Assembly (NCBI RefSeq): GCF_011745625.1
Contig: NW_027191467.1
Span: 558,001 to 588,500 of the forward strand
Source: Cladosporium halotolerans
Lineage: Eukaryota
Reading direction: 5' to 3'
Length of the DNA: 30,500 bases
Position 1 is the first letter of the stretch. The number at the start of each line of letters is the position of its first letter. Of this stretch, positions 19,637 through 24,667 are shown piece after piece. The translations under genes were made by a program, and so were the position numbers. Under the pieces are notes generated by a model. The model saw only the letters and a program-made list of their open reading frames with translations, had not been told where the DNA came from and did no database searches.

Positions 19637-21074
19637 CTACAACGGCAGCTTCTTGTGCTTGTACTGCTTTCCACCAGATCCATACATGGCAGCGGTCTGC
19701 CCATTGCCCACCAGGCGATACTCGTGAATCATCAGACCCTCCAAGCCTACAGGTCCTCTCGCGTGCACCTTGTTGGTGCTGATACCAACCTCGGTACCGA
19801 AGCCGAACCTCATACCATCGCAGAAACGCGTGCTCGCATTCCAGAACTTGCATGCAGAGTCAACGCCATTGCAGAAGCGGTCAGCGACTTCCTTGCTGGA
19901 AGTCAGCACGGCGTCGGTGTGATGCGAGCCGTGGGTGTTGATGTGATCGATGGCTGCATCAACCGCGGCGATCGGGTCTGAAGGAGTGGCGGAGACGGTC
20001 TTGATGGCGAGGACAAGGTCGAGGAACTCGGTGTTGAAGTCTGCGTCGGTGGCATCCTCGAGCTTGGTGGCCTCGTCTTTTGAGAGTTCGGTTGAAAGAG
20101 ACGCTTTAGACTGCTGGTCACACTTGAGGGTGACGCCCTTTGCGATCAGCCCAGAGGCGACCGCTGGGAGAATCGTCTTTAGTGCGTCCTCGTGGACGAG
20201 CAGAGTCTCTACGGCGTTGCAGGCAGCCGGGTAGTCGGTCTTGGAGTCAACTGCGACCTTGACGGACATGTCTTTGTCGGCATCAGGATGAATGTAGAGA
20301 TGGCAGAGTCCGTCGGCGTGGCCAAGTACGGGCATGTGAGCTTTTCTCTGACAGTGGCTGACGAGGTCGTTCGATCCACGGGGAATGACCAGGTCGACGT
20401 ACTGGCTCAGACCGAGCAATGCGTCGACCACATCTCTGGTAGCGATCATCTGGACGGAGTCGTTGGGAACATCGGTCTTGTCGAGTGCCTTCGAAATAAC
20501 AGTAGAAATGGCTTTGAAAGATTCCGTCGATTCCTTTCCACCCTTCAGGATGGCAGCATTTGCAGACTTGATCGCCAACGATGCAATGTTCGCGATGACT
20601 TCAGGACGCGCCTCGAAAATGATCAGGAGTACACCGATGGGACACGTCTGACGCTGCAGCGTCAAGCCGTCGTCAAGCCCTGTGCGTAAGTCCACCCTGC
20701 CGACTGCATCGCCGGTCAGCAGGAGGATTGAGAGAATAGAGAAGAAAAAGTGACATCGTGTTGAAGCACCTACCTGGATCTTCGAGATTCCTGACATCTT
20801 TGATACCCTGCAGCATGTCCTCGAACTTGCCTGGACGGGAAAGATCGAGACGCTTGACAATACTGGGGTTGAGTTGGCCATCCTTGGCGGACTTCTGAGC
20901 GAGTTCCAGATCTTTGGCATTAGCAGTCAAGATGTCGTCGCGCGCAGCGGCGAGAGCATCATGAACAGCATCCAAGGCATCATTTCTGGCGGACGTGGGC
21001 AGGGTCGCGAGCTTTCTTGAAGACAGCTTGGCTGCGCGTGCCGCGTCCTCGGCAGAAGCGTTAGTGAGAGACAT
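19637..21074 (-). CDS. PRO2: Gamma-glutamyl phosphate reductase (glutamate-5-semialdehyde dehydrogenase), about 455 aa
   Basis: Exons 21074-20774 and 20703-19637; intron 20773-20704 (GTAGGT..GCTGAC..CAG) joins LEDP-V-GRV in frame. Motifs: CPIGVLLIIFEARPEV, AILKGGKES, DLVIPRGS, PVLGHADGLCH, KTDYPAACNAVETLL, HINTHGSHHTD, NASTRFCDG, GFGTEVGISTNKVHARGPVGLEGL. Confidence 0.96.
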
Positions 21075-21597
21075 GGCCTTGGTATATATATAATATATCC
21101 AGGTGGTTGACGGCACAGTCAAGGTACACCGCAGCGGTGGCGTCTGGTTGGTGTGATTTGCACCGATTTGACCGCAGTCGGAACGAGTCATCCAGAATTC
21201 AGGCACACATTGCCACTCGTCAGGCTGCAACGGCCCGAAGCTCGGTCCACATCCCCAGAGCTACCCAGCCATCTCCAGCCTCCGCCAAAACGCCAGCGAC
21301 TAATCACCACCCACCGCTCGTGTGTGTGCCGGTACAGCGCATAGGCCCAATGCCATGCTATAGCACAGCCCTTGACGTACGCGCGTTTCAAAACTAGCTC
21401 TGTAGGTGGCTGGCTGCATCTTAGTTCTCTCACTAATAGCGCCTTCCTCGCACCAAAGCAGTCAGCCTATCCGTTCCCCATCTTGTGCTCACCTTCGACC
21501 CAGCTCTGCATCCCACCCTTCTCTAACTACCGCATCCTTCGGTACCATAGTGCAGCGGACCGACGGCTCAATGCTATCCCTCAACGATATCTTAGCC

Positions 21598-23179
21598 ATG
21601 CGGTCGCCGCTGCGGCTCGCAACTCTCGCTACCATCACAGCAATCCTCTTCGCCCACCCTTCACATCAGCAGACATACACACAATGCGATCCCACGACAC
21701 AATCATGTCCTCCCGACACCGCCCTTGGACGAGCCACCAGCGCTGACTTCACCGCCGGTCAATCTTCGGAATTCTCCCCTCAAGGCAATCCAGTCTACCA
21801 GTCTGACGGCGTACACTTGACCGTCGCGCAATCCGGCGATGCACCACAGCTTAACTCGAATTGGTATATCATGTTTGGACACGTCGAGGTGGTCATGAAG
21901 GCAGCACCTGGAGCGGGTATCGTCAGCTCTGTCGTGTTGCAATCGGATACTCTTGACGAGATTGACTGGGAATGGTTGGGAGCTGCCAACGACGAAGTGC
22001 AGAGCAACTACTTTGGCAAGGGTCAGACAACGACCTACGACAGAGCTGCAGTCCACGCAGTCACCGACTCGCAGAACCAGTTTCACACTTACACTATCGA
22101 CTGGACAAATGAACGCATCGTCTGGCAGATCGATGGCCAGACAGTACGAGTCCTTGAGGAAAGTGACGCTCATGGCCAATTCCCTCAAACTCCCTGTCAG
22201 TTCAAGCTCGGCATTTGGAGTGGTGGTGATCCTGGCAACCCACAGGGTACCATTGGCTGGTCTCGCGGTCCAACCGACTACACCCAAGGACCTTTCACTA
22301 TGGTCGTACAATCTGTCTCTGTCATTGACTATTCTACCGGTGACAAGTACAGCTACGGCGATCAGAGTGGCACCTGGGGAAGCATTGTCGCTGAAAACGG
22401 CCAAGTCAATGCGAATGTCGGTGCAGCAAGCGGTACTGACACCACTGCTCCCCAAGTGTCATCGGCAGCTGCTAGCGGTAACCCCGAACCTTTCGAGGGC
22501 ACCCACCGTAGTCAAGAGGGCACCTACACAACCCCAAGCGTTTACCCTTGGGTTCCTCAGTCGACAACTTTCAGCTCTGCTCCGGCTGTCACCAACACCA
22601 ACTACCCTGGCCTTCCATCTGGGTGGACCGTCGCTTCCAACGGAAAAGTCGTTCCACCCAGTGCGGCCCCAGTGAGTAAGAACCTCCCAGAGCGCTCACC
22701 CCTGACTGATCTTATGTACTAACAAATCATTCCAGTCGACATCCCCTCCCGTCTCGTCGCCCTTGTTGCCGGCGGCCTCAGTTGCGGGCTACTGTTCCGC
22801 TTCTGGGTATAAAGTCGTGACGTCCTACGACGTCCAGGGCTTCCTCACCACAGCCACTGTTGGCGAAGGTATCTCCACCGGTTTCGACGAGCGCGGTTTC
22901 CCCACGACTCTATACCCTGCGAACTGCCCGACCTCCAACTTTCCAATGAAAGCCGGCGAGATCCTGCAGGCGAGCACGATCGTCCGCGGCGAGCAAGAGT
23001 CTTCAGCAGAGTCCGAAGTCTCGTCTTCGTCTGGGCCAGTCGTGCTCCCGACGGACTCAGGGCCCGGCATCGCAACAGGAGTCGCACCTCCACAATCCGG
23101 AGGCATCAGACAGGTTTCCCAGCAACCTGTCTCTTTCACAGCATGTGTCTTGGCGTTAGTATTTTTGATCTTTGCATAG
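21598..23179 (+). CDS. CRH1: GH16 Crh-family chitin/glucan transglycosylase, GPI-anchored cell-wall protein (long isoform about 505 aa ending 23179; alternative short isoform about 384 aa ending 22812)
   Basis: Signal peptide MRSPLRLATLATITAILFAHPSHQ, then QTYTQCDPTTQSCPPDTALG, YIMFGHVEVVMKAAPGAGIVSS, catalytic LDEIDWEWLG, VQSNYFGKG, FHTYTIDW, FPQTP, GIWSGGD, and a Ser/Thr-rich stalk. The intron runs from donor 22672 (or 22676) through TACTAAC to CAG at 22735. Both resulting frames end in a hydrophobic C-terminus. Symbol is family-level only. Confidence 0.92.
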
Positions 23180-23578
23180 CGGGACCGGCGCTTCATCTGA
23201 TGGTTTTGACGATTCCCTTTTGAATGAGTTTTGGATTATCGAAGCAAGCCAAGCGCTGGTGCTGCGAGGATGGTTTCCTCTTGTCTTGGGAATATAAAAA
23301 GAAAAAGGATGGTGCGGGGGCTTCTTGTAGATATGTGTCATAAATTGATGGTCAAGTTCTCAGCGATTTGCCATTGTTTTCTGGTTCCGACTCTTAATTT
23401 TAGTACTTTTCCCGTCCAGCCTCGTCTGGATTTCAATGGCTTTTTGTGTCTCAGCCGCACGCTTTCTGGCATCGCATCTCACAGTCACATCTTAGTCATC
23501 CCCATATTATCGGAAAATTCCACTCGACGTTACATCGCCAGTCGTATCGCAACAACACCGTCCAAAACACATCGTCTA

Positions 23579-23587: not shown

Positions 23588-23791
23588 CCACAATTCCATT
23601 CAAGTCCACCATAAGCTACGGACACCCGGTCCCATTGATCCCATCCTCACCCCTTCGATCGCCCTCACATCACCTCGTCCATCCTAACCCCAACCCGAAC
23701 CCTAACAACCCCAACACACCCAACGACAACAACGACATCCAATCCTCGAAAACTCCAAAATCAAAATCAAACCCCTCCCGCCCCGACAAAA

Positions 23792-24667
23792 ATGACAGAC
23801 CCCTCAACCCTCCCAACCCCACCCCTAACAACCCTCCAAACCCCCCGCCTCACCCTCCGCACCGCGCTTCCTTCCGACCTCCCATCCCTCCTCCCCATCA
23901 TCACCGACCCGGCCACGATGGAATTCACCTCGGGCGTCGTCCCGAAGGGCGATTTGGCCCGGGCGGAGAAGTGGGTTAGCGCGAGGGTGTTGGGGGAGGG
24001 GGTGTTTAATTTCGTGGTGTTGAAGAGGAAGGAGGATGGAGGGGAAGGGGAGCTGGTGGGGATCATGGGCAGCTATGCGTGGCCGGAGGTCGGGTATTTG
24101 GTGCATCCTGGTAAGTTACTTGTTTTTTTCATTTTGGTCTTGGTTTCGGTTTTGTTCATTTCCCTCAAGAGGGGAGATCCTCGTTCTGTTCCTGGGTTTC
24201 CCTTCTTTTCCTCTCCTCCCTTCATTCCCTTCCAGCTTCAGTGAGCAAACCCCCAAGAAAGAGCACCTGCACCGAACACCCCCCCGCCCCCGTCCTCGGC
24301 CCATCACCCCATCCATCCCCACCAGGCTAACAACCCCTCCCCCCTCCCAGCCCACACAGGCAAAGGCTACGCAACCGAAGCCCTGCAAGCTTTCATCCCG
24401 GCTTTCTTCGCCCGCATGCCCCCCTCCTGCTCTCCCTCCACGCCAGGCTTCGACTACATCGAAGCCTACGTCGTCGCCCCCAACGCCGCTTCCGCGCGCG
24501 TCCTGGAGAAGTGCGGGTTCCGCGCTGTGCGGACGCTCGAGGACGAGTTTGAGTGCGAGAGGCTGGGGAGGGTGGATACGGTTGTTTGGAGGGTGGGGAG
24601 GCCGGGGTCGGGGGAGTTGATGGGGAGGGAGGGCGAGGGGGAGGGTTTTGTGCCGCCGGTTCAGTAG
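23792..24667 (+). CDS. GNAT family N-acetyltransferase (RimJ/RimL, Acetyltransf_3-like), about 211 aa
   Basis: Exons 23792-24110 and 24351-24667; intron 24111-24350 (GTAAGT..GCTAAC..CAG). Spliced protein has LQTPRLTLR, PEVGYLVHP-A-HTGKGYATEAL (acetyl-CoA motif A) and NAASARVLEKCGF. Confidence 0.9.

Follow-up and report, generated by a model that had tools for sequence, protein, structure and literature searches.

Tandem splice donors and a probable dual-coding last exon with two anchor-type tails in a fungal Crh gene

Crh enzymes tie chitin to glucan and have been studied as wall-integrity factors, antigens and plant-immunity elicitors. A gene for a predicted Crh-type enzyme lies on the forward strand of a 30,500-nucleotide (nt) stretch of Cladosporium halotolerans DNA (assembly GCF_011745625.1, contig NW_027191467.1, positions 558,001 to 588,500; hereafter the window), and its single intron opens with two splice donors 4 nt apart. 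It is very likely that these tandem donors make the last exon dual-coding and provide this one Crh gene with two anchor-type tails, as an old and conserved switch. The core of this proposal, put forward in a preliminary description based on the letters alone, is borne out by both splice joints in RNA contigs, by both frames in 35 of 51 distinct loci and by a third reading frame in which 0 of 33 loci give a comparable tail.

In the proposed mechanism, two overlapping 5' splice sites (GTGA/GTAAG) compete for one acceptor. Use of the downstream donor carries GTGA into the mRNA and ends the exon 2 frame after 25 codons, as an IDIPSR spacer, about 19 hydrophobic residues and a stop, and this short tail with the upstream S-A-A has the layout of a glycosylphosphatidylinositol (GPI) attachment signal. 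Use of the upstream donor reads the same bases as a Ser/Pro-rich linker and goes on for 147 codons through one or two YDxxGF hairpin-like motifs and a Ser/Thr-rich stalk to a second hydrophobic C-terminal signal. One gene would give a short (about 384 amino acids, aa) and a long (about 505 aa) surface-anchored enzyme, some 120 residues of stalk apart; the ratio of the two forms would be regulated, and they would act at different places in the wall.

Two donors and two frames in the window

The open frame of the gene extends from 21406 to 22722 on the + strand with in-frame ATGs at 21571 and 21598, the latter being favoured as the start because the N-termini of homologues align there in the alignment consensus. 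The coding part of exon 1 (21598..22671, +) comprises a signal-peptide-like start, MRSPLRLATLATITAILFA, a GH16 domain, a Ser/Thr-rich linker and the conserved end GKVVPPSAAP, of which SAA is the candidate omega site of the short form. Exon 1 stops with ...GCC CCA at 22671 and is followed by GTGAGTAAGA; the intron opens with GTGAGTAAG, inside which the two donors have their GT at 22672-73 and 22676-77. Donor 1, GTGAGT (22672..22677, +), defines a 64-nt intron and the long form. Donor 2, GTAAGA (22676..22681, +), lies 4 nt downstream and defines a 60-nt intron, with a frame shift and the short tail. Both share the acceptor CAG (22733..22735, +), exon 2 beginning at 22736, where both RNA joints end, and TACTAAC (22717..22723, +), which we take to be the branch-site consensus, is located 13 nt upstream of the acceptor G.

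The frame opened by donor 1 continues for 147 codons to TAG at 23177-79, giving 505 aa from ATG 21598 or 514 aa from ATG 21571. With donor 2, four extra bases (GTGA) stay in the mRNA, and the frame reads ...PV-IDIPSRLVALVAGGLSCGLLFRFWV to TAA at 22810-12, giving 384 aa from ATG 21598. The dual-coding overlap is 22736..22812 (+), which is read as IDIPSR, a 19-residue hydrophobic stretch and TAA in the donor-2 frame and as an S/P-rich linker, STSPPVSSPLLPAASVAGYCSASGY, in the donor-1 frame. The remainder, 22813..23179 (+), is coding only in the long form, where it holds two YDxxGF-type motifs (about 22814-22858 and about 22877-22909), an S/T-rich stretch and the hydrophobic end FTACVLALVFLIFA (23135-23176) before the TAG; in the short-form mRNA it is 3' untranslated region (UTR). 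No intron lies beyond the stop in the short-form mRNA, which would therefore not be an obvious decay target. As a reading of the sequence, the preliminary description was exact in its tandem donors 4 nt apart with one branch site and acceptor, in its coordinates and in both isoform lengths, TACTAAC having been named there with no position.

The nine-base donor motif by itself is not beyond chance: GTNAGTRNG is observed 9 times in the window against 5.4 expected, and 9 was reached in 12 of 100 shuffles. Any GTRAGT donor holds a second GT, and the case therefore rests on RNA and conservation, not on the motif. Chance is exceeded by two things: orthologues conserve both frames as well as donor 2, and both joints occur in RNA contigs.

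Splice joints in RNA contigs

Contigs of four runs (among 23 runs listed), belonging to four studies, were aligned to positions 21400-23400; they are 95-99% like the window, and those of X7 and X1 leave parts of this stretch uncovered. The donor-2 joint, 22675^22736, with exactly 60 nt skipped between GT and AG, is present in a 1373-nt contig of X1 (depth 13.6) and in a 2103-nt contig of X3 (depth 200.5). The donor-1 joint, 22671^22736, with 64 nt skipped between GT and AG, is present in a 1672-nt contig of X10 (depth 18.7). X7 is the only run recorded as RNA; it has a contig beginning at 22736 that is preceded by a 10-base loose end, GCCCCAGTGA, which fits the donor-2 joint. X1, X3 and X10 are presumed to be RNA, and the exact GT..AG excision argues for this.

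Intron-less contigs of related species use either donor. Contig L012 matches the genomic locus L009 at 100% and 99.9% over two aligned pieces separated by a 62-nt gap exactly at donor 1, and L073 matches L020 at 99.5% and 100% with a 64-nt gap at donor 1. Contig L008 carries the donor-2 joint, and the long-frame sequence follows as 3' UTR. Both donors are used in nature in this lineage, each being the assembled path somewhere. Each joint is present in spliced RNA contigs of near-identical strains, and the outcome that the preliminary description had named as fatal to its reading, namely that only one donor is ever used, does not hold.

A third, anchorless form had also been proposed, in which the retained intron is read as VSKNLPERSPLTDLMY and then a stop. 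No intron-retaining contig is present in the four runs, and the read-through peptides of orthologues (VSKNLPERSP..., VSKDLPVCHV..., VSKHHP...) are unrelated past VSK, which is donor sequence. The form was therefore dropped as a conserved product; an intron-retained transcript may still occur as a minor RNA.

An AG at 22780-22782 (...GGCCTCAG/TTGC) is located 46 nt downstream of the main acceptor. A joint of donor 2 to this AG would restore the long frame; none was found in the contigs of the four runs.

Conservation of both frames in other fungi

Orthologous loci were collected by scanning metagenome contigs with the exon-1 protein alignment, and 80 loci with 46-86% identity were kept. In 62 of these loci and in the window, the final 40 residues of exon 1 could be located; together they represent 51 distinct sequences including that of the window. 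In a strict dual model, two GTs 4 nt apart were required at the end of the exon, with one AG acceptor 40-200 nt further on; the donor-2 product had to be 15-45 aa long with a stop and a hydrophobic stretch, and the donor-1 product at least 60 aa long with [YFW][DNE]..G[FCLS]. This model is passed by 35 of the 51 distinct loci, the window counted. The tail of the other frame is thus kept in related species, and a lack of such conservation, the second way in which the proposal was to fail, is not what is found.

The short tails of the 35 passing loci are 22-29 aa long. One large group has the pattern (V)(I/T/N)(D/N)(I/V/L)P(S/T)R and then about 17 hydrophobic residues; a second has ...PLLFSGP.AFAILA...RWP, and this second group is assigned to Leotiomycetes because locus L029 is 94% identical to a Hyaloscypha protein. 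The long frame reaches its stop within the contig in 31 of the 35 loci and runs off the contig end in the other four. Complete long frames have 92-155 codons, and 28 of the 31 end in a hydrophobic stretch.

The 16 loci outside the strict pass comprise three intron-less loci resembling complementary DNA (cDNA), two with a short downstream part, two that are dual by eye, four with another splice layout and five with the short tail only. The two that end early downstream (L043 and L047) show GTACGTAAG and GTGAGTACG. Six loci beyond the 35 hold both frames on inspection: L046, in which a further intron interrupts the long frame, and L058, in which the long tail lacks the YD motif, are dual by eye, and L019, L039, L045 and L071 have both frames in a different splice layout. 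In three of the latter the upstream GT is absent (CTCA/GT in L039, ATCA/GT in L045 and ACTA/GT in L071). Here a single donor joined to the proximal acceptor gives the short tail, and the long frame is reached through an AG that lies exactly 31 nt beyond it in all three (tcatcctcag/ or tcatctctag/). These are candidate alternative-acceptor switches read from sequence (approximate locus coordinates L039:3619-3720, L045:3652-3750 and L071:1750-1840), and the same switch could have been rebuilt there with alternative acceptors.

The five short-only loci are of two kinds. In L017, L021 and L033 there is no intron, and the tail follows directly in frame (L017:2945-3060, L021:3574-3690 and L033:3205-3300); this suggests that the intron was lost together with the long form. 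L035 and L041 have one phase-1 donor and lack a GT 4 nt before it. No long open frame follows the short stop in any of the five, and donor 1 is missing exactly where the long tail is missing (5/5).

Signs of selection on frames and donors

As a control, the third reading frame was put to the short-tail test, which it passed in none of the 33 modelled loci. In six close loci, the mean pairwise nucleotide difference by codon position over a 75-nt overlap is 0.04 for L1/S2, 0.179 for L2/S3 and 0.267 for L3/S1, L and S denoting positions in the long and short frames. In the long-only remainder of exon 2 of the same loci it is 0.189 for L1, 0.129 for L2 and 0.522 for L3, which is the ordinary coding pattern. 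Silent-position change of the long frame in the overlap is about half that downstream, and the least variable overlap position (0.04, against 0.189 for L1 downstream) is the one deciding hydrophobicity in the short frame. The reduced silent divergence that had been predicted for the overlap is accordingly seen, and two superimposed constraints would produce such a pattern. Where the tail is 25 aa long (15 loci), the BLOSUM-positive fraction falls from 0.63 in the short frame to 0.51 in the long and 0.43 in the third.

The donors themselves were compared in 39 loci with GTNNGT. The donor-1 hexamer is GTGAGT in 22, GTCAGT in seven, GTAAGT in four, GTTAGT in three, GTACGT in two and GTTCGT in one, and donor 1 is weaker in some of these loci, 11 of the 39 having a pyrimidine at +3. 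The +5 G of both donors is invariant across the 39 loci; that of donor 2, which is intron position +9 reckoned from donor 1, played no part in the choice of loci. Position +3 of donor 2 (intron +7 from donor 1), also not selected for, is A in 35 and G in four, and the next three positions are mixed. On this comparative evidence, selection appears to have kept both frames and both donors across very widely separated fungi.

The enzyme and its two tails

The product of 21571-22671 matches Pfam PF00722 (GH16) with E 1.5e-47 and 161.8 bits (cutoff 22) over residues 71-231. The catalytic E-x-D-x-x-E motif appears in the exon-1 translation as TLDEIDWEWLG, and E130, D132 and E134 are invariant in the exon-1 protein alignment. 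The best match in the PDB is Aspergillus fumigatus Crf1/Crh5 (6ibu; also 6ibw, 'Probable glycosidase crf1') with E 1.6e-75, bacterial lichenases coming next at 1e-14. Among named proteins, the nearest are annotated as 'Crh-like protein' or 'transglycosylase' and belong to Dothideomycetes, with 72% identity in Rachicladosporium and about 65% in Friedmanniomyces, Meristemomyces and Recurvomyces. At the place of the sugar-binding motif the window reads GTIGWSRG, which agrees with the Aspergillus niger Crh consensus GTIEWAGG (PMC7389268, Table 3) as GTI.W..G only. From these matches, the product is predicted to be a GH16 Crh-type chitin-glucan transglycosylase of a dothideomycete fungus.

The short form has the small residues of GKVVPPS-A-A-P, a spacer of 7-8 residues and about 19 hydrophobic residues to the very end, and the long form ends in ...PPQSGG, a spacer and the hydrophobic stretch given above. 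A GPI-attachment signal is laid out as a small omega residue and omega+2, a polar spacer and a terminal hydrophobic stretch. An ad hoc rule for this layout, which is not a validated predictor, is passed by 33 of 36 short tails, 25 of 32 long tails and none of 35 third-frame products. Both tails may accordingly be GPI signals.

Aligned over 25 loci, the long tail has an S/P-rich start, one or two copies of xVT.[YW][DN].[QR]GF.TT.T, an S/T/A-rich stretch and a hydrophobic end, with F36 invariant. The RHS/YD-repeat family PF05593 is found only below threshold, in 6 of 25 long tails (best E 0.0041), the window tail scoring 13 bits where the cutoff is 22. When a long-form orthologue (P0012; 40 sequences) was modelled with AlphaFold2, the GH16 core came out with confidence, and the tail has four short strands within residues 382-415 at a predicted local distance difference test (pLDDT) score of 55-62, the rest being below 50. 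The repeated tail motif appears in this model as short strand pairs of low confidence.

Weighing the two-tail reading

Several points weigh against two functional tails made from one exon. The RNA evidence consists entirely of assembled contigs, which give no ratios and lose minor forms; that three of the four runs are RNA is a guess; and both joints are never found in one run, so that differences between runs could be those of strain, not condition. The intron DNA of the X10 strain is unseen, and a strain without GTGA is therefore possible. The loci are homologous, not independent, so that their counts overstate the number of independent events. The hydrophobic end is absent from 3 of the 31 complete long frames (L013, L014 and L037), and some tails of both kinds fail the GPI-layout rule. 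The long tail matches no Pfam family above threshold, and the 147-aa long tail has no relatives at E <= 0.001 among the longer proteins of a set of 5.8 billion, which is weak evidence.

If one form were functional and the other joint were splicing noise from the second GT at +5 of any GTRAGT donor, the frequency of GTNAGTRNG in the window (9 against 5.4 expected) and the silence of contigs on ratios would be as found, and in mammals delta-4 tandem donors are described as a frequent by-product of the donor consensus (PMC2423196, in the portion available). However, each joint is the assembled, and thus majority, path in at least one run; the length, stop and hydrophobicity of the short tail are kept in 35 loci, and the long frame remains open over 92-155 codons that include conserved motifs. 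Noise would also leave unexplained the failure of the third frame (0/33), the fixed +5 G of donor 2 (39/39) and the loss of donor 1 exactly where the long tail is lost, and it is a very improbable explanation. Nearly as improbable is that a 4-nt indel or a donor mutation gives each strain one form, with no switch within a cell. The absence of a run with both joints fits this idea, and so does the fact that the strains, 95-99% like the window, are not identical and their intron DNA is unseen. Against it, GTNNGT is found in 39 genomic loci of very distant species, and both frames are kept in single loci, which would be purposeless if each genome used one. With the same 9-mer, GTCAGTAAG, moreover, cDNA-like contigs of related species use donor 1 (L012 and L073) or donor 2 (L008).

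A further alternative concerns what the short tail does: it might be a plain C-terminal membrane anchor or a retention signal, and the switch would then be between a membrane-bound form and a GPI- or wall-bound one. The spacer (I/V)(D/N)(I/V)P(S/T)R with its hydrophobic stretch is more conserved than usual GPI signals, the GPI layout was judged by the ad hoc rule only, and for two of seven A. niger Crh proteins the part of PMC7389268 consulted gives a predicted transmembrane helix in place of a GPI signal. Yet the tail ends at the hydrophobic stretch, so that no residues remain for the cytosol, most short tails have a small-residue triplet (S-A/S-A) 7-8 residues upstream, and the layout rule separates short tails (33/36) from third-frame products (0/35). 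The overlapping frame may account for part of the conservation. This alternative is unlikely, though less so than noise or strain differences.

Two anchor-type tails from one dual-coding exon thus remain the preferred reading, and as judged from the loci the switch would be old, Dothideomycetes and Leotiomycetes both having it. The proportion in which the two forms are made may be regulated, the only hint being that different runs assemble different forms, and it is a reasonable idea that the switch sets the wall depth of the enzyme. A wider proposal is conceivable but doubtful: an ancient regulated switch in Dothideomycetes, Leotiomycetes and probably lichen-forming classes would choose, by condition or cell type, between a membrane-proximal form and a form with a second stalk bearing YD-like glycan-binding hairpins, and would so set the place where chitin is tied to glucan; one clade, having lost donor 1, would have rebuilt it with acceptors 31 nt apart. 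If this is true, the rebuilt two-acceptor clade would show that selection keeps the two-form output, not the mechanism.

Public annotations and neighbouring frames

The form was assigned by pattern to 85 annotated proteins with a species name. A list centred on Dothideomycetes (n=45) has 11 short, 22 long, nine unplaced and three partial proteins, and one centred on Leotiomycetes (n=40) has 16 short, 19 long, two unplaced and three partial; together there are 27 short and 41 long forms and 17 that could not be placed. Within Diplocarpon, D. rosae is annotated with the short form and D. coronariae with the long. The short form is likewise annotated in Sclerotinia sclerotiorum, and the long one in Botrytis fragariae and Monilinia. 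Loxospora, Pleopsidium, Xylona and Sarea, which represent lichen-forming and other classes, have long-form annotations too, and the Sordariomycetes in the list (Sporothrix, Colletotrichum and Coniochaeta) have short forms only. The tail of the intron-less locus L017 matches a protein annotated for Extremus antarcticus (P0060).

Annotations pick the short or the long form almost at random, and part of what comparisons between fungi show for Crh length, GPI status and 'family size' is therefore an artefact of which donor was chosen. Many database entries some 350-410 aa long (P0001-P0011, P0013-P0015 and many others), often of about 383 aa, are not short forms. They come from assemblies of sequencing runs, in which prokaryote-style gene calls read through the intron; these intron-blind calls contain ...APVSK..., and they resemble the short form in length, but their tails are spurious.

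On the other strand, an open frame lies upstream of the Crh gene (20676-21260, -); it starts with MSLTNASAEDAARAAKLSSRK, gives no Pfam match at E <= 0.01 and is probably exon 1 of a gene transcribed divergently. Downstream, the next open frame (23639-24241, +) matches the GNAT acetyltransferase family PF13302 with E 2.5e-06 after a low-complexity stretch rich in Pro, Asn and Thr.

Comparison with known systems

In acetylcholinesterase and NCAM, alternative splicing decides between a GPI signal and another C-terminus by means of separate alternative exons. The window gene differs from these in having one exon, two frames and two anchor-type tails. In fungi, peroxisomal targeting by alternative splicing or by read-through of stop codons was reportedly described by Freitag et al. 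in 2012. This cryptic targeting is similar to the present case in that a small change at the 3' end of the coding sequence gives the same enzyme another C-terminal sorting signal, and it is conserved across fungi (PMC4207609, in the part available). It adds a three-residue peroxisomal targeting signal (PTS1) to cytosolic enzymes according to the same part of that source, whereas the window gene carries two long surface-anchor signals in overlapping frames.

The window gene also differs from mammalian delta-4 donors, as its shifted frame is a conserved targeting signal of functional appearance. Delta-4 tandem donors in human and mouse are generally regarded as frame-breaking. The likeness lies in the sites: the delta-4 donors of human and mouse (GTNNGT; A5E-delta-4) are likewise overlapping 5' sites 4 nt apart, with one U1 register and two recognisable consensus sequences, in the passages of PMC2423196 at hand.

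The Crh/Crf family, which includes Crh1/Utr2 of Saccharomyces cerevisiae, Crh1-5 of A. fumigatus (Crh5/Crf1 being 6IBU/6IBW) and CrhA-G of A. niger, shares with the window gene a GH16 domain with DEIDWE, an N-terminal signal, a Ser/Thr-rich linker and a C-terminal anchor signal. The papers on this family, as far as their text was available, assume one tail per gene, unlike the window gene, which encodes two in overlapping frames; a term search of the available texts of PMC6458159, PMC7389268 and PMC8042016 gave no word beginning 'splic' or 'isoform', and none beginning 'intron' in the first two. The 'splice variants' of A. fumigatus crf1 (Crf1, Crf2, Asp f 9 and Asp f 16) are similar in that several C-terminally different products are ascribed to a Crh gene. 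In the available part of PMC2721682, however, Crf2 joins residues 1-327 of Crf1 to residues 390-395, and splice sites cannot be recognised there; the authors of that paper doubt that the frameshifted Asp f 16 sequence exists. With no tandem donor and no conserved second frame in that account, they were set aside as precedents, being a different phenomenon.

No account of a two-tail tandem-donor arrangement in a Crh gene was found in the full text of open-access papers and bioRxiv. Tandem donors and sorting signals set by splicing are known; what would be new is a tandem-donor frameshift as a conserved switch between two C-terminal anchor signals. Conserved alternative splicing that changes the protein is rarely documented in filamentous fungi, and here it has an unusually clear signature in two frames, two donors and both joints in RNA. 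Two anchored forms about 120 stalk residues apart would offer a testable handle on the positioning of a wall enzyme.

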